A stretch of 34,620 nt of DNA from Candidatus Zambryskiibacteriota bacterium (GCA_023264565.1 JAHFLV010000004.1:13408-48027); one strand, 5' to 3'; shown: positions 1,329 to 32,825, counted from the stretch's first letter. Notes: generated by a model not told the origin, from the sequence alone. Program-made: numbers and translations.

Positions 1329-1337
1329 TGATATATT
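1329..1337 (+). promoter_or_regulatory. Extended -10 box TGATATATT, 6 nt upstream of ATG 1344 (candidate leaderless promoter)
   Basis: Sequence tgatatatt-ctgtat-ATG. No SD and no recognisable -35. Confidence 0.5.
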
Positions 1338-1343
1338 CTGTAT

Positions 1344-1910
1344 ATGAGAACAAAAATTATATTAGGAATTCTTGCGCTTCTCTGTATTCTGGGAGTTTTG
1401 TTTTGGTTTCTTTCTGAGAAAAGATCCATTGATCGTATTACAACCTTTGATGAATGTATTCAAAATGGGTTTCCGGCAAACGGACTCAATCCAAGTCACT
1501 GTACACTGCCAGACGGTAGGGTTTTTGATGAAATAATCGAACCACCAACTCAAAATGAATCTGGTACAAGTACGCCAAGTCATCCGCTGGTGTCAGTCGA
1601 CAAAATAAAGAATGGCCAGGTTGTGACAAGCCCACTGACCATAACCGGCAAGGCTCGAGGATACTGGTATTTTGAAGCCTCGTTTCCTGTTGAGCTTTTG
1701 GATGCCGCCGGCAAACAAATTGCTGCTGGCCCTGCGCAGGCTCAAGGTGATTGGATGACCGAAGATTTTGTGCCGTTTACTATTACTCTGAACTTCGAAA
1801 ATAAAACCGAACAAAAGGGAACTCTTGTATTACACAAAGACAATCCATCTGGTTTGTCAGAAAGAGAAGATACACTCAGCATCCCGGTTGTGATTGGTGT
1901 CTCGGAATAG
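1344..1910 (+). CDS. Membrane-anchored protein with a Gmad2-type immunoglobulin-like domain
   Basis: N-terminal hydrophobic anchor (ILGILALLCILGVLFWFL). The C-terminal segment VTSPLTITGKARGYWYFEASFPVELLDAAGKQIAAGPAQAQGDWMTEDFVPFTITLNFE...GTLVLHKDNPSG matches my recollection of the Gmad2 Ig-like domain pattern. Confidence 0.7.
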   Translation: MRTKIILGILALLCILGVLFWFLSEKRSIDRITTFDECIQNGFPANGLNPSHCTLPDGRVFDEIIEPPTQNESGTSTPSHPLVSVDKIKNGQVVTSPLTITGKARGYWYFEASFPVELLDAAGKQIAAGPAQAQGDWMTEDFVPFTITLNFENKTEQKGTLVLHKDNPSGLSEREDTLSIPVVIGVSE

Positions 1911-1928
1911 TTATATAAGTTTCTCATT

Positions 1929-1988
1929 AAAAAAACCACACCCCCTTTGTAGCGATTAGCCGTAGCGGAAAAGGAGGTGTGGTTTTTT
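1929..1988. terminator. Long bidirectional terminator hairpin between convergent genes, carrying a conserved 20-nt loop motif
   Basis: A-run, stem aaccacaccccctt / aaggaggtgtggtt (one mismatch), then a T-run. The loop is gtagcgattagccgtagcgg (1949-1968). Confidence 0.7.
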
Positions 1989-1994
1989 GTATTC

Positions 1995-5804: not shown

Positions 5805-6041
5805 CTAGTGAAAAAACAAAGTGATGAGGGCAGAAAGGGCGAAGAGTATGCCGAGAATGATCGTGCTGTAAAACAAGGTTTTTTCTAAACCGCGTCTTTC
5901 ATGAAAGCCAGCTGAAAAGCCGTCCGCGCCGAATGCGCTTCCGAGGCCCGCTTCAGATCTCTGGAGCAAAATTGCTGCCATGAGTAGAACCGAGAGGATG
6001 ACTTGAATGATCGGTAAAACCGAACTGATGAAAAACGCCAT
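5805..6041 (-). CDS. secG: Preprotein translocase subunit SecG
   Basis: MAFFISSVLPIIQVILSVLLMAAILLQRSEAGLGSAFGADGF... has two TM segments, and the LLQ...GLG..FG motif is typical of SecG. I trimmed the start from the track ORF (6143) to ATG 6041. Confidence 0.8.
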   Translation of the reverse strand: MAFFISSVLPIIQVILSVLLMAAILLQRSEAGLGSAFGADGFSAGFHERRGLEKTLFYSTIILGILFALSALITLFFH

Positions 6042-6048
6042 TTGCACT

Positions 6049-6076
6049 ATTATACCTGCGAGCTTTGAAATGGCAA
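6049..6076 (-). promoter_or_regulatory. secG promoter: TTGCCA (6076-6071), 16-nt spacer, TATAAT (6054-6049), 7 nt before ATG 6041
   Basis: The minus strand reads ttgcca-tttcaaagctcgcagg-tataat-agtgcaa-ATG. The -35 box lies inside the left arm of the 28-bp inverted repeat. Confidence 0.55.
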
Positions 6077-6214
6077 GGTTGTAAAAAAGAGCACGCGTCA
6101 GAATTCCCGACCGGGAATTCTGCGCTCCCTCTCGTCCTCGCATCTTTTTTGTATCACACGGTAGTAGCTGCTCGGACCGCGACAGTCTCTTTTTTACAAC
6201 CTTGCCATTTCAAA
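6064..6214. repeat. 151-bp palindromic element with perfect 28-bp inverted-repeat arms. It could be a MITE-like element, an operator or a structured RNA; its function is unknown.
   Basis: The arm tttgaaatggcaaggttgtaaaaaagag (6064-6091) is exactly the reverse complement of 6187-6214. The 95-nt core contains a second 13-bp hairpin (6095-6125). Confidence 0.8.
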
Positions 6215-7112: not shown

Positions 7113-7143
7113 TTGATAGCAAGATCATGGGTGCTGGTATACT
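7113..7143 (+). promoter_or_regulatory. Candidate groES promoter: TTGATA, 19-nt spacer, TGgTATACT (extended -10)
   Basis: ttgata (7113-7118) and tggtatact (7135-7143). No CIRCE inverted repeat is seen. Confidence 0.45.
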
Positions 7144-9300: not shown

Positions 9301-9309
9301 TGCTATAAT
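9301..9309 (+). promoter_or_regulatory. Extended -10 box TGCTATAAT upstream of lemA
   Basis: tgctataat, about 40 nt upstream of ATG 9349. Confidence 0.45.
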
Positions 9310-9348
9310 TCTCGCGTTATATTTAACTATATTTAACCCCTAAAACAC

Positions 9349-9897
9349 ATGTATATTATTCTCGCAATAATTATTTTAGCTGTGCTTTGGATTGCGTTTG
9401 CGTACAACAACTTTGTTCGTAAGGTTAATCGTTCAAAAGAAGCGTGGGCAGATATCGATGTTCAGCTCAAACGCCGCTATGACCTTATTCCAAATCTCGT
9501 AAATACCGTGAAGGGTTACGCGGCCCACGAATCCGGCACGCTTGAAAAGGTTATTGCTGCTCGAAACACTGCTATGAGCGCGACTGGCACCGCTGCCAAG
9601 GGCGCCGCTGAGCAAGGCCTCGCCGGTGCTTTGAAATCCGTATTTGCTATCGCTGAACAATATCCTGACCTCAAGGCCAATCAGAATTTCCTTGCTCTCC
9701 AGACCGAACTTTCTGACACTGAAAATAAAATTCAGGCTGCTCGACGCTTCTACAACACAAACGTTCGTGACCTTAACACCGCCGTTGAATCTTTCCCTGG
9801 AAATGTAATCGCTAAAAAGTTTCATTTCGAAAAGATGGAATTCTTTGATCTCGAACCAACCGACGCTGCACGTGAAAATGTCCAAGTGAAGTTCTAA
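9349..9897 (+). CDS. lemA: LemA family protein
   Basis: N-terminal TM helix, then NNFVRKVNRSKEAWADIDVQLKRRYDLIPNLV...YPDLKANQNF..LQ.EL..TENKI..AR..YN, the typical LemA pattern. Confidence 0.85.
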   Translation: MYIILAIIILAVLWIAFAYNNFVRKVNRSKEAWADIDVQLKRRYDLIPNLVNTVKGYAAHESGTLEKVIAARNTAMSATGTAAKGAAEQGLAGALKSVFAIAEQYPDLKANQNFLALQTELSDTENKIQAARRFYNTNVRDLNTAVESFPGNVIAKKFHFEKMEFFDLEPTDAARENVQVKF

Positions 9898-9910
9898 GTG
9901 CCTATATTTT

Positions 9911-10012
9911 ATTCTGCAGTCTATTGAGAAGACCCGCAGGCAAGTTTGCTTGGTCCTGCGAAGACTTTAGTTGAGCCGGAAACTTTCCGGTCTTCGAAAT
10001 AGACTGCAGGAT
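9911..10012 (+). promoter_or_regulatory. Structured intergenic element (three helices with alternative pairings) between lemA and htpX. It could be a terminator, attenuator or thermosensor; function unknown.
   Basis: P1 pairs 9911-9934 with 9989-10012 (22 pairs including one G-U, plus a 2-nt internal mismatch). P2 pairs 9935-9940 with 9955-9960 and includes caag/cttg. P3 is ccggaaactttccgg (9976-9990). gaagac occurs twice (9928, 9960), and both copies are complementary to gtcttc (9990). Confidence 0.5.
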
Positions 10013-10022
10013 AATAACTTTT

Positions 10023-10963: not shown

Positions 10964-11048
10964 GGAAGGTTCGCATAGTGGTCTAGTGCGCACGCTTGGA
11001 AAGCGTGTGTGGGGCAACCCACCAGGAGTTCGAATCTCCTACCTTCCG
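10964..11048 (+). tRNA. tRNA-Ser (anticodon GGA), class II with a long variable arm. CCA is not encoded.
   Basis: Manual fold: acceptor GGAAGGT/ACCTTCC; 3-bp D stem; anticodon stem CACGC/GCGTG with loop TTGGAAA; variable arm GTGGG-GCAA-CCCAC; T arm AGGAG-TTCGAAT-CTCCT; discriminator G. Confidence 0.93.
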
Positions 11049-11080
11049 CTTTGAGTTTGCTGGAGATCAAACGGTATTTT

Positions 11081-11109
11081 TTGCTAGTCATCAGCCTTTC
11101 GACTATAAT
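11081..11109 (+). promoter_or_regulatory. Promoter TTGCTA, 17-nt spacer, TATAAT, ending 6 nt before ATG 11116 (candidate leaderless)
   Basis: ttgcta-gtcatcagcctttcgac-tataat-tctctc-ATG. Confidence 0.55.
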
Positions 11110-11115
11110 TCTCTC

Positions 11116-14100
11116 ATGACAAAAAAAATTCTGACACTTGTATTTTTTGTTCTTATACCGTTTTCATTTTCTTTCAAAATCACCTCCGCTGCAGTGATAG
11201 ATGCTACCGGAATGCTTGGACATTATGACAATAATGGCAATCCTCAATACGATGCGATAGCGTTGCCGAATAACGCTCAAGGATTCGCCACACCAGCATC
11301 TTCTTGTGTCGATACTGCAAATCACTTTATTTTTGTTGCTGATAGCGGCGGTAATCGAGTACTTGTATTTGGACTTACCTCTTCTAACGTTCTAAGTACA
11401 ACGACCGCCTCATACGTTCTTGGTTTTACTAATTTCACCGACACCCCTCCAGGAGGTCTGTCCCAAAGTCTTGTGCATAATCCGTATGGTCTCGCCTGTG
11501 ATCCAGCCAACAACCGTGTTTTTGTCTCTGACAGAACGAATAATCGGGTGCTCGTGTTCAACACCGCTTCTACCACTATCGCTAATGGTGAGAGCGCAGA
11601 CTACGTTTTGGGTCAGAGTAATTTTTCCTCAGGTTCATCGGCGAACACTCAGGGTGGTTTGAGTGCTCCACACGGACTTTCATACGACTCTGTGAGCTCT
11701 CGACTTTTTGTGGCGGATTCAGGAAATAATCGTGTTGTGGTGTTTGATGTTTCCACCTCTACCATTTCAAATGGGGAACTCGCATCTAATGTGCTCGGAC
11801 AGACACTTTTTACTACCAGAACTACGGCGGTATCCGCTACGGGGATGAATACCCCCTACGGACTTTCGTACGAAGCAAGTAGTACCAGACTTTTTGTTGC
11901 GGACACCTTTAACAGCCGTGTGACAGTATTCAATGTTGCTACTTCGACAATATCTAACGGAGCGAGTGCTGCATATGTCCTGGGGCAAGTTGATGCGAAC
12001 AGCAATGATTCTAGTGCTACCACGGCCACATCGATGGGTAATCCCGAAGGAGTAATTTCAGACCCGGTTAATAATCGAGTTTTTGTTGCCGACAGCACCT
12101 ACAACAGAGTGACTGTGTATAATTCCGCAACATCAACCATTGCTACAGGAGAAACCGCGCTGAATGTTTTGGGGCAGACAAATTTTACCGCTTCGTCACG
12201 AGGAACCACACAAAGTAAAATAGACGGGTCCGTTGGATTTCTTGGTCTCGATTATGATCCTGCGAATAATGCACTTTACGTCGCTGATGCGGGAAATAAT
12301 AGAATCATGGTATTTACCACGACATCCGTCATCACTAATGGTCAGAATGCTACGTATGAAATAGGTCATGCTGATACTACTACAGGCAATCCCGTATATA
12401 CCGCCTACGATACTTATAATAATCCGCGTCCACAATCTGCATACAATATCCATGGAAGTGTTATAGATACAAAAAATCACAGAATGTTTATAAGTGATTA
12501 CAGTGATGCGACTCCTGGCGCTCGTGTTCTTGTCTATAACCTTGATTCCAATAACAACATAAATACCAGTACTCCATCATACGTTCTTGGATGGACCGAT
12601 TTCTACACAGCAAAAAGTATCGCTTTTACACAATCTGGATTTAACAAGATCGTTATGATTGGTCCAGCATATGACTCTGTAAATGAGAGGCTTTTTGTGT
12701 CCGACACTTCAAACAACAGAGTTCTTGTTTTTAACGTTAATCCATCCTCAATCGCTAATGGCGAGAATGCAACCGCGGTTCTCGGTCAAACAAATTTTAC
12801 CAATCATTCAGGAGCAACAACCCAAGCGGGTCTTCGTGCGCCAAGCTACCTCAATTATGACTCCGCTACTAGCCGGCTTTTTGTTGCCGACAGTGGAAAT
12901 AACCGCGTGATGGTTTTTAATGCGACATCTACCATAACCAACGGTCAGGCTGCCATTAATGTTCTTGGTCAGTCGTCATTTACTGTGAGTACGGCAGCTC
13001 TGACCAGTAGCGGTATGAATTCTCCTTGGGCTGTGACATATGACGCTACAAGCTCAAGACTTTTTGTGGCAGATCGAGGTAACAACCGCGTTCTTGTGTT
13101 TGATGCTGGCACATCGACTATTTCAGATGGAAAGACTGCTTCAAACGTTCTTGGTCAATCTAGCTTTACAACAAATTCTAGTGCCCTCAGTCAGAGTGGA
13201 CTTAATAATCCAAAGGGGGTGATTTACGACTACAAACACGATCTTCTTTTTGTGGGTGATTATGGTAACAATCGTGTAATGATGTTCGATGTTTCGACCT
13301 CAACTATTGCGAATGGAGAAAATGCGAGAAATCTCATTGGTCAGTCAACATTCACATCTTCAGATAACAACAGTTTCAGTATTCATGGATCTGGTGGTTC
13401 AGAGCAGGGAACGTATAACCCCGCGAATAATACGTTTTTTGATGCCCAGTACTATCCAGATCGTGTGATGCAATTTCCCCTAGTCTTGATAAACTCGACT
13501 TCAGTACCAAATGGAAACGTCGGTTCATCATATTCTTCTAGTATTAGTGCCACACAAAACCAGGGAACACTTAGTTACTCTATAGCCTCCGGCTCTTTAC
13601 CCTCCGGTCTCACACTCTCAACTGCGGGTGCAATAACGGGAATACCGACAACGTATGGCACCAGTACTTTTACTGTTGAAGCAGACGATACTTTCAGCTC
13701 GGGGTCATTTCCTGATCAACGATCCTTCTCTCTATTTATCGACAATGCTATTCCTGATACCGTGGCGCCAGTCATTTCTTCAATTGCAACTTCAACCACC
13801 CAGACATCGGCAATCGTTACTTTCCTGACCGACGAAGTTGCAAGTTCGACCATTAGTTATGGCCCTAGTACTACGTATACCAATACATCTTCAGTACACT
13901 CTTTTTCAACATCAACATCAATTACCATCACGGGTCTTTCTCCGGCAACAACGTACCACTTTCAAATTTTAGCTTCAGACGCATCTCTCAATCTCTCAAA
14001 CTCAACAGACCTCGTCTTCGTGACACGCAACAAAACACACCAGTTGACTGGGTACCAACCAATAGTTCCTGTTGCGGACACCGCTCCCGCGCTACCGCTG

Positions 14101-14702: not shown

Positions 14703-15140
14703 CTATGCGCCGACAGGTTGCATGTCTTTTGTTACGACAATTTTTCTGCTTTGAAGCGCATCGAGAATTCGGTTAATAAGCTCGGGGCTTAAGAACCTGT
14801 GCTCATCCAACGGCTCTTTGTTCGGACTGAGCCTCAGCCTGAGCCTCAGCATGACGGCGTCTGATTTTTCAAGCTCTTCGCACAAGGATTTCCAGATCCC
14901 CTCCAGAATTTCTCGTACCTTGTCCTGGGCGTCACAAAACCTTTCGAAGAACGATTCGTTACTGATCAGTGGCTTGTTGCCATTTTCCGTCTCGAGACTA
15001 ATGGAAAAACCAAAACCACCACTGAGTTTGTCGTCACAGATCTCAAATACGAGGCCATAAGGGTTCGAAAAGATGTCTATAGCCCTGAGCATAAAACATT
15101 CACCGTGTGTGTCCAATTTCATGGGGGTGCCTGTGTCCAA
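14703..15140 (-). CDS. Hypothetical cytoplasmic protein (145 aa), no family recognised
   Basis: AAGGAGG (15154-15148) lies 7 nt upstream of TTG 15140. An in-frame ATG at 15123 is too far from the SD. The gene has its own promoter and terminator and contains an (LR)3 tract. Confidence 0.55.
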   Translation of the reverse strand: MDTGTPMKLDTHGECFMLRAIDIFSNPYGLVFEICDDKLSGGFGFSISLETENGNKPLISNESFFERFCDAQDKVREILEGIWKSLCEELEKSDAVMLRLRLRLSPNKEPLDEHRFLSPELINRILDALQSRKIVVTKDMQPVGA

Positions 15141-15747: not shown

Positions 15748-15775
15748 GTTACCGAGTATCGTATACTTATCTCAT

Positions 15776-20602: not shown

Positions 20603-20632
20603 TTGACAAAACGCATAAAAACATGCTATAAT
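20603..20632 (+). promoter_or_regulatory. Near-consensus promoter TTGACA, 18-nt spacer, TGcTATAAT
   Basis: ttgaca (20603-20608) and tgctataat (20624-20632). Confidence 0.7.
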
Positions 20633-20704
20633 GGTAGAAGTAAATCAAGTGGTCGCTACAGTTGTGGCCGCATACCCGTTCTTTGATTCTTCAAGGAGAT
20701 TGTC

Positions 20705-20896
20705 ATGTTGGATAATGGTCGTCGTGCGTATCGGAACGCTCTGAGTGTCTTCATCCTGCTGTTTGTTGTTTTCATTGCTTTCGCTTGGGCGAAGACCTCG
20801 GGCGACAAGAGCAAGGCAGCATACGAAGCAGATGTCGTTGCACGCGAGTTCGGTACGTCCTCGGCACAAGACAGCTCAGCTTCGGAGAATCGGTGA
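20705..20896 (+). CDS. Small (63 aa) single-pass membrane protein, hypothetical
   Basis: AAGGAG (20693-20698) lies 6 nt upstream of the ATG. The sequence is MLDNGRRAYRNALSVFILLFVVFIAFAWAKTSGDK... with a TGA stop. It is flanked by its own promoter and terminator. Several overlapping ORFs in other frames lack start signals. Confidence 0.55.
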   Translation: MLDNGRRAYRNALSVFILLFVVFIAFAWAKTSGDKSKAAYEADVVAREFGTSSAQDSSASENR

Positions 20897-20918
20897 AGAG
20901 ATTCACCAACAAAATGCG

Positions 20919-20953
20919 AACACCTAAACCTCACGGTTTGGGTGTTTTTCTTT
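20919..20953 (+). terminator. Rho-independent terminator
   Basis: acacctaaacc-tcac-ggtttgggtgt (one G-U pair) followed by ttttctttg. Confidence 0.75.
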
Positions 20954-20973: not shown

Positions 20974-20982
20974 TGCTATACT
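20974..20982 (+). promoter_or_regulatory. Extended -10 box TGCTATACT upstream of gap
   Basis: tgctatact, 37 nt upstream of ATG 21020. Confidence 0.45.
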
Positions 20983-21019
20983 TAGTCCATTAAAAAGCAA
21001 AAAATTTTAACATTACCGT

Positions 21020-22054
21020 ATGAGTAAAATCAAAGTAGCGATCAACGGGGCGGGAAGAATTGGCAGAGCGTTTTTGAAAGTTGCGCGAGAACGAAAAGAA
21101 ATTGAAGTAGTGGCCATTAACGACCTCGGCAGCATCGAAAGTATTGCCTATCTTTTGAAATACGACACAGTCTACGGAAATTCTGATTTTACTGTTGAAG
21201 TAAGTCAAGATAAAAAATCTCTCTTGATCGACGGCAAGTCTGTAGCTTTTGTGAGCGAAAAAGAACCGGCTAAACTTCCATGGGGAGCGCTTGGTATCGA
21301 TGTGGTGGTTGAATCAACCGGTTTCTATACTTCATACGAAAAATCCAAAGCTCATTTGGATGCTGGCGCAAAACGTGTAGTTATTTCTGCTCCGGTCAAA
21401 GACGAACCAACTGCTGGTATTCGTGGTGCAACCGTCCTTCTCGGTATTAATGATGAAAAACTCGAAACTTGTGATATCAGTTCCAACGCATCGTGCACAA
21501 CAAATGCCGGCTCTCCGGTCATGGCGATTTTGAATGAAACAATTGGTATCGAAAAGGCCATCCTCAACACCGTGCACGGCTACACTGCCAGTCAGTCACT
21601 CGTCGACGGTCCAAGCAAAAAGGACCTTCGCGAAGGCCGAGCAGCGGCGCAGAACATCGTGCCGTCTTCGACTGGTGCGGCGATTGCGGTTACTCAAGCA
21701 CTGCCAGAGCTCAAGGGAAAATTTGACGGTATTTCTATCCGTGTACCAGTTCCGGCTGGTTCAATTGTAGATATCACCTTCCTCGCTAAAAGAAATACTA
21801 CCGTAGAAGAAATCAATTCTATTTTAACTAAAGCTTCAGAAGAAAAACGTTGGGAGCGAATTTTTACGGTCACAAATGAACCCCTTGTTTCTTCAGATAT
21901 TTTGGGTAACAGTCATGCTTCGATCGCTGATCTCGCATTGACTCGTGTTGTCGACGGAAATCTCGTGAAAGTCATGGCTTGGTACGACAATGAAATGGGG
22001 TACACACATGCGCTGGTGGATCATGTTGTGAAGACTGGTGGTTTTGTTAAATAA
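21020..22054 (+). CDS. gap: Glyceraldehyde-3-phosphate dehydrogenase, type I
   Basis: INGAGRIGR Rossmann motif and SNASCTTN active site. Confidence 0.95.
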   Translation: MSKIKVAINGAGRIGRAFLKVARERKEIEVVAINDLGSIESIAYLLKYDTVYGNSDFTVEVSQDKKSLLIDGKSVAFVSEKEPAKLPWGALGIDVVVESTGFYTSYEKSKAHLDAGAKRVVISAPVKDEPTAGIRGATVLLGINDEKLETCDISSNASCTTNAGSPVMAILNETIGIEKAILNTVHGYTASQSLVDGPSKKDLREGRAAAQNIVPSSTGAAIAVTQALPELKGKFDGISIRVPVPAGSIVDITFLAKRNTTVEEINSILTKASEEKRWERIFTVTNEPLVSSDILGNSHASIADLALTRVVDGNLVKVMAWYDNEMGYTHALVDHVVKTGGFVK

Positions 22055-23373: not shown

Positions 23374-24243
23374 ATGCCCGAAATCACTGACAAAGAAATA
23401 AAAACTCTCGAAATCAAAGCAAATGAGATTCGTCAATCGATCATTACTATGCTCCTTGAAGCTGGTTCGGGTCATACAGCAGGACCTCTCGGTATGGCCG
23501 ACGTTTTCACCGCTCTCTTTTTTCATATTTTAAATCACAACCCAAAGCGTCCTGACTGGGCTGACCGCGACCGAGTTGTGCTTTCCAATGGCCATATTTG
23601 TCCGGTGTTGTACGCGACTATGGCTCACGCTGGATATTTCCCAATGGAAGAGCTACAGACTCTTCGTAAGTTCGGTAGTCGCCTCCAGGGCCATCCACAC
23701 CGAGAATATCTGACAATGCTTGAAACTAGTTCTGGTCCGCTCGCTTCTGGGCTTTCACAGGCTGTTGGTATGGCACTCGCAGACAAAATCGACAATGGTG
23801 TCGAAAGTCACAAAACCATTTACGCACTTTTGAGCGACGGTGAACACGACTCTGGCCAAATCTGGGAGGCGGCGATGTTGGCGGGAAAAAATCGACTCAG
23901 AAATCTGATTGCGATCGTCGACCGAAATAATATTCAGATCGACGGTTTTACTGAAGACATTATGCCACTCGAACCTTTGGCAGATAAATGGCGAGCGTGG
24001 AACTGGCATGTGCAGGAAATCGATGGGCACAACATGGAAGAGATAATTGATGCTGTGGGCAAGGCAAAAGCTGTTTTTGAAAAGCCATCAGTGATTATTG
24101 CCCGCACGATTCCTGGCAAAGGCGTGCCAGATTTCGAACGCAAATTCGAATGGCATGGCAAACCGCCAAATAAAGAAGAAGCGGCGATGGCGCTGAATGC
24201 GTTGCGAACGTTGGGAGGGAAGATTCGAAGTGAACATGAATAA
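23374..24243 (+). CDS. tkt: Transketolase, N-terminal (TPP-binding) subunit
   Basis: SGHTAGPLGMADV, LSNGH and GDGE-like LSDGEHDSGQIWEA motifs. 289 aa. Confidence 0.9.
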   Translation: MPEITDKEIKTLEIKANEIRQSIITMLLEAGSGHTAGPLGMADVFTALFFHILNHNPKRPDWADRDRVVLSNGHICPVLYATMAHAGYFPMEELQTLRKFGSRLQGHPHREYLTMLETSSGPLASGLSQAVGMALADKIDNGVESHKTIYALLSDGEHDSGQIWEAAMLAGKNRLRNLIAIVDRNNIQIDGFTEDIMPLEPLADKWRAWNWHVQEIDGHNMEEIIDAVGKAKAVFEKPSVIIARTIPGKGVPDFERKFEWHGKPPNKEEAAMALNALRTLGGKIRSEHE

Positions 24244-24274
24244 CTGCGGATAATAATGTGTAATAAAAACTATC

Positions 24275-24580
24275 ATGAGTAAGTGGATACTTGGAACGCC
24301 AATCGTTTTCTTCGCAATCTGGGGAGGAGCCTTTGTTCTGACTCTTCAGGCAAAAAGTGACAGTATTATTGTTAATCTTGCTGTAATAATTCGCATACTT
24401 ATCGAGGTTGTTGCTGAGAAGCTCAGTCCGTTTATAAGTCCTCTAATCGGTACAACATTATACAAATCCTCTTTTTTCTTTGGTGAACCTACGTCCGCAG
24501 GGTTTATATGTCTCATAATTTTTTACCTCATTGTTACTGTTATTGTCGGAGCAATTCTCGGTGCGTTGTTTGGAAAATAA
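24275..24580 (+). CDS. Hypothetical small integral membrane protein (101 aa, about 3 TM helices) between the transketolase halves
   Basis: An open frame that exactly fills the gap between tkt-N and tkt-C. The sequence is strongly hydrophobic, with no recognisable motif and no SD. Confidence 0.5.
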   Translation: MSKWILGTPIVFFAIWGGAFVLTLQAKSDSIIVNLAVIIRILIEVVAEKLSPFISPLIGTTLYKSSFFFGEPTSAGFICLIIFYLIVTVIVGAILGALFGK

Positions 24581-24622
24581 AGAGATGTTTACCAGGAAAA
24601 TTTTATAAACCATTTCACAATC

Positions 24623-25624
24623 ATGCTCAACTCTAACCTCAATCAAAAAGTTTTCGACACAGACGTCGAGCAACAGCCAATCCGAAAAGGGTATGGTGAA
24701 GGACTTTTGGCTGCGGGTGAAGCTGATTCACAAGTTGTGGCTTTGTGTGCCGACCTTACTGAATCCACCCAAACTCATTTGTTTGCGAAAAAATTTCCAG
24801 AGCGATTTATTGAAGTCGGCGTGGCTGAACAAAACCTGGCATCTGTTGCCTCTGGTATGGCGGCGATGGGGAAGATTCCGTTTATTACTTCCTACGCCAT
24901 GTTTTCTCCTGGCAGAAATTGGGAACAAATTCGCACCACTATCTGCTATAACAATCAGCCGGTAAAAATTGCCGGTTCGCATGCAGGAATTTCTGTGGGT
25001 CCTGATGGAGGCACGCATCAGGCTGTCGAAGACATGGCCATCACTCGTGTTATTCCACGAATGGTCGTCATTTCTCCATGCGATTCTGTTGAAGCAAAAA
25101 AAGCGACCGTCGCTGCGGCAAAAACTGACACCCCGGTCTACATTCGTCTCGCTCGAGAAAAAACGCCGATCATGACGACTGAAGAAACTCCTTTTGAAAT
25201 TGGCAAAGCAGAACTTTTTTATGAAACCAAAAAGCCGGAAGTAGTCATTATTTCAACCGGCGCGCTCACACACAAAGCGCTTGTTGCGGCCCATGAACTC
25301 GGCCAAGCTGGCGGCTCAAACGGTGCAGGTATACAGGTAAACGTTTTAAATCTTTCTACTATCAAACCCCTCGACGAAGCGGCGATCATTAAACAAGCCA
25401 AACTTGCTGGCGCGGTTATAACAGTCGAAGAACATCAAATTCGTGGCGGCATGGGTAGCGCGGTTGCCGAATGTCTCGCAAAACATGTGCCAACTCCAAT
25501 GGAATTCATTGGTGTTGATGATCAATTCGGTCAGTCTGGAAAAACAGACGAACTCCTCGAACATTATGGAATGACTGTCGAAGCTATTAAAAAAGCTGTT
25601 AAGAGAGTGATCGAAAGAAAATAA
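24623..25624 (+). CDS. tkt: Transketolase, C-terminal (pyrimidine-binding plus C-terminal domain) subunit
   Basis: RKGYGEGL, VGVAEQN, GPDGGTHQAVEDMA and TVEEHQIRGGMGSAV motifs. Confidence 0.9.
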   Translation: MLNSNLNQKVFDTDVEQQPIRKGYGEGLLAAGEADSQVVALCADLTESTQTHLFAKKFPERFIEVGVAEQNLASVASGMAAMGKIPFITSYAMFSPGRNWEQIRTTICYNNQPVKIAGSHAGISVGPDGGTHQAVEDMAITRVIPRMVVISPCDSVEAKKATVAAAKTDTPVYIRLAREKTPIMTTEETPFEIGKAELFYETKKPEVVIISTGALTHKALVAAHELGQAGGSNGAGIQVNVLNLSTIKPLDEAAIIKQAKLAGAVITVEEHQIRGGMGSAVAECLAKHVPTPMEFIGVDDQFGQSGKTDELLEHYGMTVEAIKKAVKRVIERK

Positions 25625-25671: not shown

Positions 25672-26712
25672 TTAAATTTTCTTTGGCACATACTCCGCCG
25701 GAGCATTTTTCAAATATTCCAACAACTTTTCTTGTGTGAGCAATCCTTTCTGTGCGCCGATTTCTTGCACAACAGACATAGAGTTAATCGGAGCCCATTT
25801 CATGGCTTCAGGAATACTTTTTCCAAGTACGAGAGCGGCCGTGAAGGTCGATGCGAATGCGTCACCGGCACCTGTGCGTTCATACGGCGGTTTTGGGTCT
25901 GGATATGTTGGCATGAACCAAACTTCGCCTGCGCCACCTGTGCCGCTCGTGCTGCTGTCAGAGGCATACGCACCTTTTGGTCCGTTGGTGATCACGACAA
26001 TCTTTGGTCCAAGTGCATGCATGCCAGCGATCAATTTTTTAACAACTTCTTCTAAAGAACCGCTCATTTCTTCCGCAGGCATTTTCAAAATTCGTTTTGC
26101 TTCTTCGACGTTGCAGAAAAAGATTTCCGCTCGTTTATAAAACGCTGCGAGTTTTTCGTGCCCTGCGTTCATCTGAAATGTACCCGGCTGAAAGGCAAGT
26201 TTGATATCGGGATTTTTTTCAAGCCATGCGCCGATTTCCAACTGATAGTTCAAAGAATTCGCACCCAAAGAAGTCACATATACCCAACGTGGATTCTTGC
26301 GAGGTGCCATAAAACGATAGGGGAAATCCTCATGCTTCACTAGAATTGTGCGCTCGTCTTCAAACCAGAGCACATAGTGATAGTTGGTTTTGAAACCTCG
26401 ATGGCGAGAAATATATTTAGTAGAAACCCCATTCCTTTTTGTGGTCTCGATACAATCTTTGCCATTTTGATCACCACCAATATCGGTCATGATCGCAGAG
26501 TTCAAACCAAGACGTGCAGCAGAGACAGCGGCGTTCGGTCCATTACCAACCGCGCTCACAACCTCGACAAACTCAAAAGGAATTTTATCGCCAAAAGCCA
26601 TACAGAGTTCGCAGTCGTCACGGTTTACGTTGCAGTGAACAGAAGCTTCCTTCAATCTGATAAATGCGTCGATCACAATGTCGCCGATGGCGAGAAAATC
26701 AATTTGTTTCAT
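25672..26712 (-). CDS. PfkB-family carbohydrate kinase (ribokinase-like fold); substrate not assignable
   Basis: N-terminal DFLAIGDIVIDAF and C-terminal TGAGDAFASTF anion-hole motif. The start is set to ATG 26712; the track uses TTG 26718. Confidence 0.8.
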   Translation of the reverse strand: MKQIDFLAIGDIVIDAFIRLKEASVHCNVNRDDCELCMAFGDKIPFEFVEVVSAVGNGPNAAVSAARLGLNSAIMTDIGGDQNGKDCIETTKRNGVSTKYISRHRGFKTNYHYVLWFEDERTILVKHEDFPYRFMAPRKNPRWVYVTSLGANSLNYQLEIGAWLEKNPDIKLAFQPGTFQMNAGHEKLAAFYKRAEIFFCNVEEAKRILKMPAEEMSGSLEEVVKKLIAGMHALGPKIVVITNGPKGAYASDSSTSGTGGAGEVWFMPTYPDPKPPYERTGAGDAFASTFTAALVLGKSIPEAMKWAPINSMSVVQEIGAQKGLLTQEKLLEYLKNAPAEYVPKKI

Positions 26713-26718
26713 GCACAA

Positions 26719-26727
26719 AGTATATCA
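26719..26727 (-). promoter_or_regulatory. Extended -10 box TGATATACT, 6 nt upstream of ATG 26712 (candidate leaderless promoter)
   Basis: The minus strand reads tgatatact-ttgtgc-ATG. Confidence 0.5.
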
Positions 26728-26770: not shown

Positions 26771-26798
26771 TTGACATTTCATTAAAAAATTCTATTGT
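26771..26798 (+). promoter_or_regulatory. Candidate promoter TTGACA, 16-nt spacer, TATTGT
   Basis: ggttgacatt... The same 10-mer, GGTTGACATT, heads the cassette at 29694. Confidence 0.5.
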
Positions 26799-26841
26799 TA
26801 TGAAAGAGTAGATCACATAAGCATACGCACAGGAGTTCACC

Positions 26842-27051
26842 ATGAGTGATTTTAATCTCGGACCACCCATTGGCCTTCAGCTTGTTCGTGTTGTTGCCGG
26901 AGCCTTTAGTGCTGACAGACGACAAGGTCAGGACCAGAAGCAGGAACAGGGGAGTTGGTCCGCTGTCCGCAACCCGCTGGACCCTACACCGTCCACTCAT
27001 TACACGTCTCTTCTTCCTGATGTGCCGCTGCCCGCACGTACCAACCCCTGA
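26842..27051 (+). CDS. Hypothetical small protein (69 aa, Pro/Gln-rich, probably disordered). The coding status is uncertain, and the unit could be a non-coding RNA.
   Basis: AGGAG (26831-26835) lies 6 nt upstream of the ATG, with a TGA stop and its own promoter and terminator. Composition is low-complexity, and all frames are open in this region. Confidence 0.35.
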   Translation: MSDFNLGPPIGLQLVRVVAGAFSADRRQGQDQKQEQGSWSAVRNPLDPTPSTHYTSLLPDVPLPARTNP

Positions 27052-27080
27052 CCCCGTGTTCCTTGTTCGAGTCTTCCACA

Positions 27081-27114
27081 CCGCCGGTACAAATTCTGTA
27101 TCGGCGGCTTTTTT
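27081..27114 (+). terminator. Rho-independent terminator
   Basis: ccgccggtac-aaattct-gtatcggcgg (one G-U pair), then c and tttttt. Confidence 0.8.
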
Positions 27115-27119
27115 ATGCA

Positions 27120-27128
27120 TGATATAAT
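27120..27128 (+). promoter_or_regulatory. Extended -10 box TGATATAAT, 6 nt upstream of ATG 27135 (candidate leaderless promoter)
   Basis: tgatataat-ttcgca-ATG. The position where a -35 box would sit is occupied by the preceding terminator. Confidence 0.55.
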
Positions 27129-27134
27129 TTCGCA

Positions 27135-28001
27135 ATGAAAACACTTGCAGAATATATTCAGGACGCACGAAAAAGAAAGGTCGCGGTTGGTCATTTTAAT
27201 ATTTCAAATATCGAGGGAATGTGGGCGATTTTTAACGCCGCTCGAAAGCTCAACGTACCGGTGATTACCGGTGTTTCAGAAGGTGAGCGAGAATTTTTAG
27301 GAGTTCGTCAGGTTGCGGCGCTTGTGAAAAGCCTTCGCGAAGAATATTCGTACCCAGTTTTTCTTAACGCTGACCATACCTACACAGTCGAAAAAGTAAA
27401 AGAAGCACTTGATGCTGGTTTTGACGCAGCAATTTTCGACGGCGCAAAACTTTCGTTCGAAGAAAATGTTGCTAAGGCAAAAGAATGCGTCGAGTATGCG
27501 CGAACTCTCAGCCACAAGCCGCTTATCGAAGGTGAGCTTGGTTTCATTGGCCAATCTTCAAAAGTTTTAGATGCTATCCCTGAGGGTGTCGATCTTGAAA
27601 AGGGTCTCACAACAGTCGAGCAGGCAAAGGTTTTTGTTGAACAAACTGGCGTTGATTTGCTAGCTCCTGCGGTCGGAAATTTCCATGGCATGCTTCGTGG
27701 TGGTGTTGACCCTAAACTCAATATCGATCGCATCAAAGAAATTTACGATGCCGTTGGCATCCCGCTCGTCCTTCATGGTGGCTCTGGAAATTCTTCAGAA
27801 GATTTTTCTGCGGCAATCGATGTCGGTGTTTCTATTGTGCATATCAACACCGAACTTCGCGTTGCTTTCCGTGACGCTCTCAAACTTTCTCTTCAAGAAA
27901 ACCCAGAAGAAGTGGCTCCATATAAAATTCTCAAAAATTCTGTCGCGGCTATGGAAAAACTCGTTGATACAAAACTTCGCGTGTTCAATAAGATGAAATA
28001 A
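27135..28001 (+). CDS. fba: Class II fructose-bisphosphate aldolase
   Basis: VAVGHFN, LNADHT and LVLHGGSG motifs. 288 aa. Confidence 0.9.
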   Translation: MKTLAEYIQDARKRKVAVGHFNISNIEGMWAIFNAARKLNVPVITGVSEGEREFLGVRQVAALVKSLREEYSYPVFLNADHTYTVEKVKEALDAGFDAAIFDGAKLSFEENVAKAKECVEYARTLSHKPLIEGELGFIGQSSKVLDAIPEGVDLEKGLTTVEQAKVFVEQTGVDLLAPAVGNFHGMLRGGVDPKLNIDRIKEIYDAVGIPLVLHGGSGNSSEDFSAAIDVGVSIVHINTELRVAFRDALKLSLQENPEEVAPYKILKNSVAAMEKLVDTKLRVFNKMK

Positions 28002-29695: not shown

Positions 29696-29723
29696 TTGAC
29701 ATTGCCCTGAAAACGTGTATTAT
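29696..29723 (+). promoter_or_regulatory. Candidate promoter TTGACA, 16-nt spacer, TATTAT
   Basis: ggttgacatt-gccctgaaaacgtg-tattat. The leader contains the hairpin agaacc-gcagcgtgt-ggttct. Confidence 0.5.
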
Positions 29724-29777
29724 ATACGCAGAACCGCAGCGTGTGGTTCTTTTGTACCTTGTTGTAAGGAGGCAACT

Positions 29778-30158
29778 ATGGACCTTTTGTCACAGCGTCT
29801 GCTTAGTCTTTTGGACCGTCAGCCCAACCCCACCTCGTTGGTGGTTGTCGTGTACGACATGATGTCGGCGGCAGGGCTCTCCGAATACCGGACCGATGAG
29901 TGTACCTCGTCAGTACTCGGTGGTGAGCTTCGGTGGGATTTCGACAAGGGGTGCTGGCGTTATGAGCATCCTGAATTTGGTTCGGACTGGTTGAAAATCG
30001 GCCTGGAAGGTCGCAATCCAGTCGGAGGTGCTGGTACCAGCATGGGGGTGGCATTCGTCTACGATCCGCACAATGTTTCGCATCGGATCGCGTACGACAT
30101 GTTCCTCGAGGAGCTTCAGACCGGGCTTCGTCTGGTTCGGCCGCCCTTGGCTGCCTAA
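29778..30158 (+). CDS. Hypothetical protein (126 aa), no family recognised
   Basis: AAGGAGG (29766-29772) lies 5 nt upstream of ATG 29778; the track's GTG 29715 lies inside the promoter. The sequence looks globular (LVVVVYDMMSAAGLSEY...GVAFVYDPHNVSHRIAYDMFLEEL). The gene has its own terminator. Confidence 0.6.
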   Translation: MDLLSQRLLSLLDRQPNPTSLVVVVYDMMSAAGLSEYRTDECTSSVLGGELRWDFDKGCWRYEHPEFGSDWLKIGLEGRNPVGGAGTSMGVAFVYDPHNVSHRIAYDMFLEELQTGLRLVRPPLAA

Positions 30159-30185
30159 GCTCACAATATGTTCGCTGTGCTACTG

Positions 30186-30213
30186 CACCCCGTCGGAGAC
30201 GGGGTTTTTCTTT
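30186..30213 (+). terminator. Rho-independent terminator
   Basis: ccccgtc-gga-gacgggg followed by tttttcttt. Confidence 0.85.
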
Positions 30214-30263: not shown

Positions 30264-30291
30264 TTGATTTTTTATCAGTCTCGAATATAAT
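30264..30291 (+). promoter_or_regulatory. Promoter TTGATT, 16-nt spacer, TATAAT, ending 6 nt before ATG 30298 (candidate leaderless)
   Basis: ttgatt-ttttatcagtctcgaa-tataat-agccgg-ATG. Confidence 0.55.
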
Positions 30292-30297
30292 AGCCGG

Positions 30298-30978
30298 ATG
30301 CTTAGCTTAAAAGTAAAGGCCCGCGATGTCGGGGAAAGTCTCTATAAAGTTCGTGACGAAGGCTTCATGCCTGCTGTTTTTTACGGCAAAAAAGAAAAGT
30401 CCACTCCGGTTTCTGTCGGAATGGCAGATTTTATGAAAGTATGGAAACAGGCGGGTGAATCTTCTGTTGTTGTTTTGAACAGCGACAAGGGTGATCTTGA
30501 ATCTCTCATTCATGATGTGGATATCGATCCAATCACCGAAATGCCTCGCCACGCTGATTTTTATGTGTTCGAAAAAGGTCACAAACTCGAAATCGACATT
30601 CCTCTGGAATTCGTTGGTGTTTCTCCTGCGGTCAAAGATCTCGGTGGTATTCTCATCAAAGTTCTCCACAATTTGAAGATCGAAGCAATGCCAAAGGATT
30701 TGCCTAAGAAAATCGAAGTCGATATTTCTTCTCTTACATCTTTCGACAGCCAGATCGCTGCAGGCAGCATTAAGCTCCCAGAAGGCGTAACTCTTATTGA
30801 AGACGCAGCCGAAGTCATTGCTCTCGTTTCTGAACCAAAAGAAGAAGTTGAAGAAGTTGCAGCTCCAGTGGACCTCTCAGCAATCGAAGTCGAGAAGAAG
30901 GGTAAGAAAGAAGAAGAGGGTGAAGAAGGTGCCGCTGCTCCAGCAAAAGGCGAAAAAGCCGAAAAGTCAGACAAATAA
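30298..30978 (+). CDS. rplY: Ribosomal protein L25 (Ctc form) with a charged C-terminal tail
   Basis: LRDEGFMPAVFYGK..., a two-domain Ctc-type length (226 aa) and a Glu/Lys-rich tail. Confidence 0.85.
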   Translation: MLSLKVKARDVGESLYKVRDEGFMPAVFYGKKEKSTPVSVGMADFMKVWKQAGESSVVVLNSDKGDLESLIHDVDIDPITEMPRHADFYVFEKGHKLEIDIPLEFVGVSPAVKDLGGILIKVLHNLKIEAMPKDLPKKIEVDISSLTSFDSQIAAGSIKLPEGVTLIEDAAEVIALVSEPKEEVEEVAAPVDLSAIEVEKKGKKEEEGEEGAAAPAKGEKAEKSDK

Positions 30979-30986: not shown

Positions 30987-31047
30987 AAAAAATCCAATCT
31001 TCTTTTTCCGCTTCGGCTAACCGCTACAAAAGAAGATTGGATTTTTT
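30987..31047. terminator. Long terminator hairpin carrying the same conserved 20-nt loop motif as 1929-1988, in the opposite orientation
   Basis: aaaaaatccaatcttctttt / aaaagaagattggattttttt. The loop ccgcttcggctaaccgctac (31008-31027) is the reverse complement of gtagcggttagccgaagcgg. Confidence 0.75.
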
Positions 31048-31091: not shown

Positions 31092-31100
31092 TGATATAGT
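31092..31100 (+). promoter_or_regulatory. Extended -10 box TGATATAGT, 6 nt upstream of ATG 31107 (candidate leaderless promoter)
   Basis: tgatatagt-atgcat-ATG. The first ATG (31101) directly abuts the box. Confidence 0.5.
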
Positions 31101-31106
31101 ATGCAT

Positions 31107-32501
31107 ATGCGTTTTTTCCAAAAAAGAGCTTTGGTTTTTTTGTCAGCAATACTTCTCATTGCTTTCTCTTTTACTACCTATTTTTCTGCTCTTTCTGCGA
31201 TAGCGGCGACCAAAACAATTCCAGCCTCTACAAGTGCTTCAGACACTGCTGACCGCGAAGCCGCTCTTCGTGCCGAGCTCGCAAAGACCGAAGCTGAAAT
31301 TGCTCAATGGACAGTTGTGCTCGACGCTAAGCGAAAAGAGACTGGCTCCATAGAACGCGACGCCGCTATTTTGGCTGCAAAAATCGAGCAGGCAAAGCTC
31401 GTTATTAAGGCAAAAAATTTAGCCATCCAAACACTCGGTAAAGATATTACTCAAAAAGAACAAACTATCGGCCAGCTGAATTCTAAAATTGCTCGTGGAA
31501 AGGAGTCGCTTTCAGAGCTTATTAGAAAAACCAATGAAATCGATGAATATTCGGTTGTCGAAGTTGCTCTTTCTGACAAAAAACTTTCTGACTTTTTCTC
31601 TGACGTAGATGCGTATAATTCAATTAAGCTTTCGATGCAGGATTTGTTTGCCGATGTGCGTACTGCAAAAAGCCAGACTGAAACCGAAAAGGCTGTTTTA
31701 AATTCGAAAAAAAATCAGGAAACTGATGCAAAGGCGGTAATCGAAACTCAAAAAAGTAGCGTTGAAAAAACCGAAGCTGAAAAACAGGCTTTGCTCAAAA
31801 TCAGTAAAACTCAGGAAAAATCATATGAGCAAGTCTTGGCGGATCGTCAGCAAAAGGCCGCCCAAATTCGTTCTGCCCTTTTTGCTCTCCGAGACACCGC
31901 AGCGATTCCATTCGGCACAGCGTTGACCTATGCCAATGCTGTTTCAAAAAAAACCGGCGTTCGACCAGCATTTATTTTGGCGATTTTGACTCAAGAATCC
32001 GACCTCGGACGAAACGTTGGTCAATGTTACGTCAAAGATCCAAAGACCGGTGATGGTGTTGGTAAAAATACAGGTACACCGTTCAAAGGTATTATGCATC
32101 CGACCCGTGATGTACCTATTTTCCTTGCGATTGCTCAGCGACTTGGTTTCGATCCATTCAGCCAGCCGGTTTCATGTCCGCAGCCAGGTGGTTACGGTGG
32201 TGCAATGGGTCCATCACAGTTTATTCCTTCAACCTGGGTTACATACGAAGCGCGCATTGCTGCCGCGAACGGTATCAAAACTCCAAACCCATGGGATCCA
32301 AAGGATGCGTTTATGGCAACCGGTCTTTTCTTGGCTGATTTGGGTGGTGTGAACGGCAGCTATACCGCAGAACGTGAAGCCGCAGGCCGATACTATGCCG
32401 GTGGTGCCTGGGCAACCCGTGGTTTGGCGTATGCCGACAGTGTGTTGAATCATGCAAAAGTCATCCAAGAGACAATGATTGACCCACTTCAGGGCCTCTG
32501 A
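31107..32501 (+). CDS. Secreted coiled-coil protein with a C-terminal lytic transglycosylase (SLT_2/MltB-like) domain
   Basis: Signal or anchor sequence (ALVFLSAILLIAFSF), about 230 aa of heptad-rich Ala/Lys/Glu sequence, then ILTQESDLG (catalytic Glu) and GGAMGPSQFIPSTW. The start is either 31107 or 31101. Confidence 0.75.
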   Translation: MRFFQKRALVFLSAILLIAFSFTTYFSALSAIAATKTIPASTSASDTADREAALRAELAKTEAEIAQWTVVLDAKRKETGSIERDAAILAAKIEQAKLVIKAKNLAIQTLGKDITQKEQTIGQLNSKIARGKESLSELIRKTNEIDEYSVVEVALSDKKLSDFFSDVDAYNSIKLSMQDLFADVRTAKSQTETEKAVLNSKKNQETDAKAVIETQKSSVEKTEAEKQALLKISKTQEKSYEQVLADRQQKAAQIRSALFALRDTAAIPFGTALTYANAVSKKTGVRPAFILAILTQESDLGRNVGQCYVKDPKTGDGVGKNTGTPFKGIMHPTRDVPIFLAIAQRLGFDPFSQPVSCPQPGGYGGAMGPSQFIPSTWVTYEARIAAANGIKTPNPWDPKDAFMATGLFLADLGGVNGSYTAEREAAGRYYAGGAWATRGLAYADSVLNHAKVIQETMIDPLQGL

Positions 32502-32507
32502 TATAGT
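32499..32507 (+). promoter_or_regulatory. Extended -10 box TGATATAGT upstream of rpmE. Its TGA is the stop codon of the preceding gene.
   Basis: ctc-TGA-tatagt, 15 nt before ATG 32523. Confidence 0.45.
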
Positions 32508-32522
32508 ATCCAGCACAAATAT

Positions 32523-32825
32523 ATGAAAGCAGAAATTCACCCAACATATTTTCCAAAAGCGACCGTAGAATGCGCATGCGGCAACAAATTCACCGTTGGC
32601 TCTTCAAAAGAGTCTATTCGAGTTGAAATCTGCAGCAAATGCCATCCTTTTTACACAGGTCAGGAAAAGAGTCTCGACAGCGCCGGCCGAGTTGAAAAGT
32701 TCAAGAACCGCCGAGCTGCAGCCGCTCCAAAGGTCTCAAAGAAAAACGCAGAAGTCGTTTCTTCTACTCCAGAACAAACTCCATCTGATGCTTCAGCTTC
32801 AAACGCGCAGGAATCTGCAGCGTAA
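32523..32825 (+). CDS. rpmE: Ribosomal protein L31 (Zn-ribbon type) with a roughly 35-aa C-terminal extension
   Basis: MKAEIHPTY...CACGN...[11 protein letters not shown]...GRVEKF. Confidence 0.9.

Follow-up and report, generated by a model that had tools for sequence, protein, structure and literature searches.

The window considered here is a stretch of 34,620 nucleotides (34.6 kb) from a Candidatus Zambryskiibacteriota bacterium (GCA_023264565.1 JAHFLV010000004.1:13408-48027), and the subject of this analysis is a short box resembling a bacterial -10 element that lies directly before several of its start codons. The window has a GC content of about 44% and carries housekeeping genes. Those recognized by Pfam are uppP, a gene for a Gmad2-domain protein (gmad2), RNase J (rnj), an SBP_bac_5 protein, secG, groES/EL, lemA, an M48 peptidase, a large NHL-repeat protein, DUF192, nrdA/B, gap, rpiB, rpe, a split transketolase, a pfkB kinase, class II fba, an FAD oxidase, rplY, an SLT-domain protein, rpmE, and prfA. 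A tRNA-Ser at 10964-11049 is the single Rfam match in the window. The identities of the eight genes whose starts were singled out in the initial annotation, which was made from the sequence alone, are confirmed by Pfam (Gmad2, PfkB, class II FBA, SLT_2, L31, NHL, L25/TL5, SecG). The closest database homologues of the fba protein are 67-79% identical to it and, where labels are present, are assigned to Patescibacteria or the Parcubacteria group; most homologues are 288-289 aa in length. The window is accordingly attributed to an uncultured member of the Patescibacteria (candidate phyla radiation, CPR). A scan of genome contigs with fba returned four loci, namely metagenome-assembled genomes of Candidatus Saccharibacteria (58% protein identity) and Adlerbacteria (47%), one archaeon, and one distant bacterium.

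The promoter-like features that lie close to start codons are as follows.

1286-1305, minus strand: uppP/bacA promoter; weaker extended -10 box TGATACCAT at 1305-1297, 8 nt, ATG 1288 (gene 473-1288).
1329-1346, plus strand: gmad2 promoter; extended -10 box TGATATATT at 1329-1337, N6, ATG 1344 (gene 1344-1910); no -35 hexamer.
6039-6076, minus strand: secG promoter; TTGCCA-N16-TATAAT (6076-6049), 7 nt, ATG 6041 (gene 5805-6041, 78 aa).
11081-11118, plus strand: NHL promoter; TTGCTA-N17-TATAAT (11081-11109), 6 nt, ATG 11116.
15762-15778, plus strand: DUF192 promoter; TATACT at 15762-15767, 8 nt, ATG 15776.
26710-26727, minus strand: pfkB promoter; extended -10 box TGATATACT at 26727-26719, N6, ATG 26712 (kinase gene 25672-26712).
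27081-27137, plus strand: fba promoter; terminator, 5 nt, extended -10 box TGATATAAT at 27120-27128, N6, ATG 27135.
30264-30300, plus strand: rplY (L25/TL5) promoter; TTGATT-N16-TATAAT (30264-30291), 6 nt, ATG 30298.
31092-31109, plus strand: promoter of the SLT-domain transglycosylase; extended -10 box TGATATAGT at 31092-31100, N6, ATG 31107.
32479-32525, plus strand: rpmE promoter; TTGACC-N17-TGATATAGT (32479-32507), N15, ATG 32523; 10 of 12 consensus matches, with TG.

The box is far more frequent in the window than its base composition predicts, and its position is not random. The motif TGATATANT has five matches on both strands taken together, against 0.74 expected from dinucleotide-preserving shuffles, which also supplied the other expected counts for the window. 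All five lie on the sense strand just 5' of a genuine gene start, four with a spacing of N6 and one of N15, and the chance that at least four of five such sites would share one given spacing before the ATG of an open reading frame (ORF) of at least 80 codons is about 9e-10. The relaxed pattern TGNTATANT has nine matches where 2.3 are expected; seven lie shortly 5' of a gene start on the sense strand, and the remaining two (7135, 20624) are more distant from theirs. Likewise, TATAAT-N6-ATG occurs three times against 0.14 expected, these sites including 11104/11116 (NHL) and 30286/30298 (rplY), and secG has TATAAT-N7-ATG (6054-6049, ATG 6041). The initial annotation had listed the five TGATATAnT boxes and the three plain TATAAT cases at 6-7 nt; every coordinate was correct on re-checking, and no further TGATATAnT match exists on either strand. 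Two cases had escaped it, uppP (ATG 1288) and DUF192 (ATG 15776), both with a spacing of 8 nt.

The box is a bacterial extended -10 promoter element, TnTGnTAnAAT, and not a ribosome-binding site. Extended -10 promoters function independently of a -35 element, and four of the five TGATATANT boxes have no -35 hexamer at 16-18 bp, as the description of the boxes as lacking a -35 had held. The exception is rpmE, with TTGACC at 17 bp. The plain TATAAT boxes do possess -35-like hexamers at 16-17 bp, which that description had passed over, namely TTGCCA (secG), TTGCTA (NHL) and TTGATT (rplY), and the secG promoter as a whole matches the consensus at 11 of 12 positions. In the window, lemA, gap and groES have the same element 26-40 nt ahead of them, and these serve as comparison cases.

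7135-7143, plus strand: groES; TGGTATACT; candidate starts 7176, 7197 and 7251.
9301-9351, plus strand: lemA; TGCTATAAT at 9301-9309, 39 nt before ATG 9349.
20974-21022, plus strand: gap; TGCTATACT at 20974-20982, 37 nt before ATG 21020.

The leaders of lemA and gap are AT-rich and have no Shine-Dalgarno (SD) sequence. For groES, only ATG 7251 gives what is presumably the usual N-terminus, and with the promoter at 7135 this start implies a leader of about 100 nt. A further copy of TGCTATAAT, at 20624, is part of a textbook TTGACA-N17-TATAAT promoter. An element found at such variable distances from start codons is a promoter rather than a site of ribosome binding. A TAACAT 6 nt before the gap ATG was considered as a box and dropped in favor of the better TGCTATACT 37 nt upstream, the orthologues of gap being mostly leadered as well. 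The base after the TG is A in all five short-spacing boxes (1329, 26727, 27120, 31092, 32499), while the four leadered boxes (7135, 9301, 20624, 20974) read TGC or TGG; this split may be due either to chance or to a feature specific to the organism.

The geometry of the boxes also fixes the start codons. In TGATATANT-N6-ATG the TGA of the box is an in-frame stop 15 nt before the ATG, so that a longer ORF is impossible and the starts are nearly unambiguous. For example, the in-frame TGA within the gmad2 box rules out any longer form of this gene, and the protein begins with MRTKIILGILALLC, which resembles a signal sequence or membrane anchor. The uppP promoter diverges from that of gmad2, about 20 bp away; its start at 1288 is that of the public gene call (271 aa), and the N-terminus MTFVQAIIMGLVEGFTEFLPISSTAH reads as what we take to be a canonical UppP start. 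The initial annotation had preferred 26712 to 26718 for pfkB and 31107 to 31101 for the SLT gene, and relatives bear out both choices. In the closest relatives pfkB begins with ATGAAAC, equivalent to 26712, and the SLT orthologue of the closest relative reads TGGTATAGT-N6-ATGCGTTTT, equivalent to 31107. The ATG at 31101 abuts the SLT box and would therefore fall upstream of the predicted transcription start site (TSS). In secG, the Pfam domain occupies residues 9-74 of the 78-aa form, and one public assembly calls the gene from 6143 (112 aa), 34 codons upstream of the start at 6041.

Several boxes closely follow a terminator-like hairpin or a separate gene. A strong intrinsic terminator (27081-27107 plus a T-run) ends 5 nt before the fba box, a terminator at 30187-30205 lies upstream of the rplY promoter, and between the rplY stop and the SLT box there is a perfect 20-bp hairpin (30987-31047). 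Similarly, a hairpin with a T-run (about 15723-15748, read directly from the sequence) directly precedes the DUF192 box. The NHL promoter directly follows the tRNA-Ser, whose end is 32 nt before the NHL -35 element; the NHL-repeat protein itself has the signal-peptide-like N-terminus MTKKILTLVFFVLIPFSF. These terminators, hairpins and the tRNA leave little room for a promoter further upstream. The rpmE promoter is located within the 3' end of the SLT gene, and TGA 32499-32501 serves, as had been noticed earlier, both as the stop of the SLT-domain ORF (31107-32501) and as the first three bases of the rpmE box. With its spacing of N15, rpmE is predicted from the sequence to have an SD-less leader of about 8-11 nt and not to be leaderless.

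Relatives were reached through an alignment of 36 fba homologues, which led to 80 metagenomic loci (about 0.96 Mb in total, 57-78% fba identity), all sampled around this single gene. The initial annotation had proposed to plot the distance between the motif and start codons, and on this roughly 1 Mb the plot gives a sharp peak at 6 nt with a tail to 10 nt. The distance (d) was measured between TGNTANNNT and any ATG that begins an ORF of at least 80 codons, a procedure for which gene calls are unneeded, and fba was excluded; the counts at d=6-10 are 62, 47, 30, 24 and 30, where the background is about 8. At d of 5 or less the counts do not rise above background, the profile of the reverse-complement motif is flat, and starts with GTG or TTG give no peak in the 6-10 nt range. 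Upstream of 936 crudely called gene starts, TANNNT has 163 occurrences at d=6 and 86 at d=7 (background about 35). The logo of the d=6 class reads TnTGnTAnAAT, with G at 61% at -14, T at 65% at -15, A favored at -6, and an uninformative -35 region. The extended TG type accounts for more than half of these boxes (86 of 163), and a TTG at 16-18 bp accompanies 19 of the 77 non-extended boxes versus 5 of the 86 extended ones. Codon choice after the ATG was observed to differ too: the second codon is AAA in 23% of genes with a box at 6-7 nt versus 13% of others, and the genes with this box are also richer in A at +4 to +7.

How often the signature is present depends on gene context. With the signature defined as a -10 box 6-9 nt before the ATG and a shifted spacing as the control, the signature occurs in 41-51% of genes that are divergent or spaced by more than 30 nt (control 13-19%) and in 24% of tightly packed same-strand genes (control 11%). 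It is present in all 39 loci that resemble the candidate phyla radiation (CPR) and hold at least 12 genes, at a median of 31% (control 12.5%, SD-like motifs 5%). After subtraction of the control, roughly a quarter of all genes in the CPR relatives, and roughly 30% of the divergent or well-spaced ones, are of the leaderless type. L004 (JAQYOU010000108.1), a distant locus of uncertain affiliation with 36% fba identity, served as an internal negative control and has the signature in 0 of 14 genes and SD-like motifs in 10 of 14 (71%). The same script found no peak at 6 nt and an SD peak in 150 kb of Escherichia coli K-12. In 150 kb of the Deinococcus radiodurans megaplasmid MP1, from a genus in which leaderless mRNAs are known to be abundant, the script found a peak at exactly 6 nt (12 versus about 2).

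The box is also conserved gene by gene. Orthologues were examined for a strong -10 box 6-10 nt before the ATG, and for fba, pfkB, rplY and rpmE it was found in 75-92% of those in relatives: 64 of 78 for fba (36 at exactly 6 nt), 48 of 58 for pfkB, 45 of 49 for rplY, and 24 of 32 for rpmE. The -35 of rplY (TTGAtt/TTGCat) is conserved, as is the TTGCAa -35 of rpmE, which in relatives forms TTGCAa-N17-TGcTATAgT at mostly 8-10 nt with a mode of 9-10 nt. For secG, six of seven loci have a box, at 6-8 nt, and at least three of these are of the TGCTATA type. Most loci have TGnTAnAAT 5-7 nt before the fba ATG, including the Saccharibacteria and Adlerbacteria genomes. What is kept among orthologues is the box and its distance; the sequence of the spacer and flanks is not conserved. 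Genes of the other classes behave accordingly in relatives, the orthologues of gap being mostly leadered (27-39 nt) like gap in the window, and those of the operon-internal rpe, C-terminal transketolase gene (tktC) and FAD oxidase being mostly without a box.

The use of the box within the window is widespread and not general. About nine of about 23 protein-coding transcription units (around 40%) are of the leaderless type: gmad2 (1344), uppP (1288, d=8), secG (6041, d=7), NHL (11116), DUF192 (15776, d=8), pfkB (26712), fba (27135), rplY (30298) and SLT (31107). Hence, the original statement that the core genes are leaderless was too broad, the others being leadered or operon-internal. The short-leader class is represented in the window by rpmE. 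Leadered genes without an SD are lemA, gap and groES, with leaders of about 26-33 nt or more, and those that are operon-internal without an SD are groEL, nrdB, rpiB, rpe, the N-terminal transketolase gene (tktN), the ORF at 24275, tktC, the FAD oxidase gene and prfA. The response regulator at 384, rnj, the SBP gene, the ORF at 6969 and nrdA were placed in no census class. A GATAAT 7 nt before the M48 ATG (10023) was tried as a tenth leaderless case and dropped, as it does not conform to TANNNT and lies within the 3' arm of an inverted repeat.

All nine leaderless-type genes have an ATG start and no SD-like motif. The eight starts of the initial annotation, and likewise groEL, lemA, nrdA, nrdB, gap and rpiB, indeed have no GGAG, GAGG or AGGA at 3-16 nt upstream. 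The absence of SD sequences thus holds at the named starts and fails for the window as a whole, where five small orphan ORFs have a strong SD.

14703-15154, minus strand: orphan ORF, 145 aa.
20603-20950, plus strand: orphan ORF, 63 aa.
26771-27114, plus strand: orphan ORF, 69 aa.
29696-30213, plus strand: orphan ORF, 126 aa.
33876-34322, minus strand: orphan ORF, 115 aa.

Each of these has AGGAGG, AAGGAG or AGGAG 5-8 nt before its start; at least four of the five are preceded by a canonical TTGACA-N16/17-TAnnnT promoter that leaves a leader of about 35-65 nt, and most have their own terminator. Their design is thus the reverse of that of the leaderless-type genes. Their GC content is 0.47-0.57 versus 0.40-0.46 in adjacent housekeeping genes. 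None has a Pfam, PHROG or NCBIfam match, and the four searched by tblastn had no match in the 80 related loci. The five ORFs may be recently acquired cassettes. Given their strong SDs, the organism probably keeps an anti-SD; a search for the conserved 3' region of 16S rRNA gave no match in the 80 related loci. In relatives, SD-like motifs precede about 5-10% of genes, and 6-10% in every gene-context class, with only a small GGAGG peak.

Taken together, these observations make it probable, on sequence and comparative grounds, that housekeeping promoters of the sigma-70/sigma-A type are set directly against the ATG and give rise to leaderless mRNAs in this lineage of Patescibacteria (CPR). Promoters with a TG before the -10 hexamer (TnTGnTAnAAT) would be recognized with no need of a -35, and those without it would use a TTGnnn hexamer 16-17 bp upstream as the -35. 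The hexamer ends 6 nt, sometimes 7-8 nt, before the ATG, and RNA polymerase would start about 7 nt after the hexamer. With the -10 hexamer at -12 to -7 and a further 6 nt, +1 would fall on the A of the ATG, or 1-2 nt earlier in some genes. TSSs are reported to centre 7 bp downstream of -10 elements (PMC12641261). The resulting mRNA would have neither a 5' untranslated region (UTR) nor an SD, and the ribosome would load onto the 5'-terminal AUG together with initiator tRNA, by analogy with Actinobacteria, Deinococcus and archaea. The remaining genes would either be transcribed from the same promoters with an AT-rich leader free of SD sequences, or be operon-internal without an SD. The exact TSS and the mode of ribosome loading are deduced from the -10-to-ATG geometry and from known leaderless organisms. 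Leaderless initiation depends on AUG, and the lack of enrichment below 6 nt, the restriction of the enrichment to AUG and the lack of an SD are what leaderless expression predicts.

Four points weigh against this reading. Boxes at d=7-10, and at d=15 in rpmE, imply leaders of a few nucleotides rather than none. The closest relative (L007, 78% fba identity) has no box beside its fba ATG and has TATAAT about 37 nt upstream (about 9950-10003); its fba thus stands behind a leader of about 35 nt, so that the leaderless or leadered state is not fixed per gene and can change between close relatives. The strong SDs of the five orphan ORFs suggest that the ribosome is still able to use SD pairing. Finally, gene starts in the relatives are crude calls (the longest ATG ORF), which makes the fractions approximate. 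The core of the leaderless interpretation in the initial annotation is supported by all the sequence-based and comparative tests, and gives way for rpmE to the short leader predicted above.

Of the other explanations, the one that survives best, though it is unlikely, accepts the boxes as promoters and holds that the transcripts are not strictly leaderless, having a 5' UTR of 1-10 nt from which initiation is SD-independent, relying for instance on an AT-rich 5' end without structure and on a short bS1. The tail of distances at d=7-10 and the rpmE spacing in the window and in relatives fit this explanation, and an SD-independent leadered route must in any case exist, since leadered genes of the same genome also have no SD. 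However, with the mode at exactly d=6, +1 coincides with the A of the ATG. Distances of 5 or less show no enrichment, as would be expected if the transcript must contain the AUG, and the lack of enrichment for GTG and TTG starts agrees with the dependence of leaderless initiation on AUG.

It is very improbable that the box acts in the mRNA as a non-SD ribosome-binding or enhancer motif, like that of the Bacteroidetes-type "group B" of GeneMarkS-2, with the promoters further upstream. A short fixed distance from start codons and a genome almost free of SD sequences are what such a motif would lead one to expect. The motif, however, is the extended -10 consensus, occurs in the same form well upstream of lemA, gap and groES, is accompanied by a TTG at 16-18 bp when not extended, is much rarer before tightly packed operon-internal genes, often has terminators or a tRNA immediately upstream, and has its counterpart in the d=6 peak of Deinococcus.

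A shade less probable still is that TGATATA is the operator of a specific transcription factor with a small regulon. The 5-versus-4 split in the base after the TG has a chance of roughly 1e-3, a post hoc test, and would favor an operator; however, relatives show no preference (A50/C35/G33/T43 for short and A27/C20/G19/T20 for distant boxes), the genes are functionally unrelated, and the promoter consensus already explains the motif. The A was for this reason rejected as the mark of a special class or operator. A compositional artefact has a practically negligible probability, for although the pattern TANNNT is a loose one and the intergenic sequence rich in AT, such an artefact is rejected by the shuffles, the shifted-spacing and reverse-complement controls, E. 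coli, and the conservation among orthologues.

A few further features were observed in the window. A perfect 28-bp inverted repeat (arms 6064-6091 and 6187-6214, 95 nt apart) lies directly upstream of secG. Its spacer holds the internal palindrome cagaattcccggtcgggaattctg, its proximal arm includes the secG -35 TTGCCA, and the 112-aa public call (ATG 6143) begins within it; the repeat could be an element resembling a miniature inverted-repeat transposable element, or a structured one. The repeat mentioned above for M48 is a 26-nt inverted repeat between lemA and M48 (arms 9909-9934 and 9989-10014, 88% complementary, 54 nt apart), whose M48-side 3' arm includes GGATAAT and ends 8 nt before ATG 10023, and which could form an RNA structure controlling the translation of M48. 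The transketolase (23374-25624) is split into N- and C-terminal genes with a 101-aa hydrophobic ORF without a family match (24275-24580) between them. At 32823-32827 the sequence TAATG holds both the stop of rpmE and the start of prfA; prfA has no SD, and this suggests translational coupling by termination and re-initiation.

The mechanism itself is already known from other bacteria. GeneMarkS-2 "group C" is characterized by a Pribnow box at 6-8 nt from the start codon (PMC6028130). To this group belong Deinococcus deserti/radiodurans, Mycobacterium tuberculosis and most Actinobacteria, in which the operon-first genes with such a box likewise have no SD. Group C is frequent among Actinobacteria (90%) and Deinococcus-Thermus (97%), 25-60% of the transcripts of such bacteria are leaderless, and in D. 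deserti 167 of 262 mapped genes are leaderless (PMC6028130). The likeness extends to D. radiodurans MP1, which peaks at the same d=6. The differences are that the present lineage belongs to the CPR, with small and AT-richer genomes, that extended TG boxes make up more than half of those at d=6, and, what chiefly sets the case apart from the description of group C, that the remaining genes are SD-poor as well. For example, leadered operons of M. tuberculosis have a predicted ribosome-binding site (RBS) 6-8 nt from the start (PMC6028130), whereas the leadered and internal genes here are SD-less.

Extended -10 promoters (TGn/TRTGn, the "-16 region") of E. coli and Gram-positive bacteria share the TnTGnTAnAAT consensus and the absence of a -35 from extended boxes. 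They usually drive leadered mRNAs that contain an SD, whereas here the element is so placed that +1 would coincide with the start codon. Group B (Bacteroidetes/FCB, the Fibrobacteres-Chlorobi-Bacteroidetes group) shares the scarcity of canonical SDs and the AT-rich sequence upstream of leadered and internal genes; its motif precedes all genes including operon-internal ones (PMC6028130), whereas the promoter motif here is concentrated on the first genes of units.

For the CPR lineage no published report of leaderless mRNAs was found. The search was of full texts pairing "leaderless" with names of the lineage, and as subscription journals were mostly outside it, a report may exist elsewhere. One study used 188 RNA-seq TSSs of N. 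lyticus and did not discuss 5' UTRs (PMC12641261). A survey of CPR ribosomes detected an anti-SD in only 48% of Parcubacteria and found bS21 often absent and bS1 short; leaderless mRNAs are unmentioned in it (Tsurumaki et al., 2022, PMC9297842). Such reductions fit SD-independent initiation, and the window, with its five strong SDs, differs from this general scarcity in that its anti-SD is probably kept.

A wider proposal, plausible and somewhat favored over its negation, is that Patescibacteria as a whole are a third large bacterial clade in which the first genes of units are expressed mainly as leaderless mRNAs from extended -10 promoters, with the SD nearly abandoned elsewhere, in connection with reduced ribosomes. 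The reductions that this proposal invokes are a short bS1, the frequent loss of bS21, and the loss of the anti-SD in some Parcubacteria. Actinobacteria and Deinococcus-Thermus do not have the near-abandonment of the SD for leadered and operon-internal genes that is posited here for the CPR.

If the boxes do mark leaderless starts, CPR genomes would gain a simple and checkable start-codon rule, as in the case of secG, which is over-long in the public assembly. If this holds for the whole clade, standard gene callers would systematically misplace the start codons of CPR genomes. Likewise, expression constructs for the few cultivable Saccharibacteria would need TGnTAnAAT 6 nt before the ATG, and not an RBS. 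A very large, deep-branching lineage with reduced ribosomes would join the leaderless-rich bacteria, and this would bear on the question of whether genome streamlining produced leaderless initiation or the trait is ancestral.

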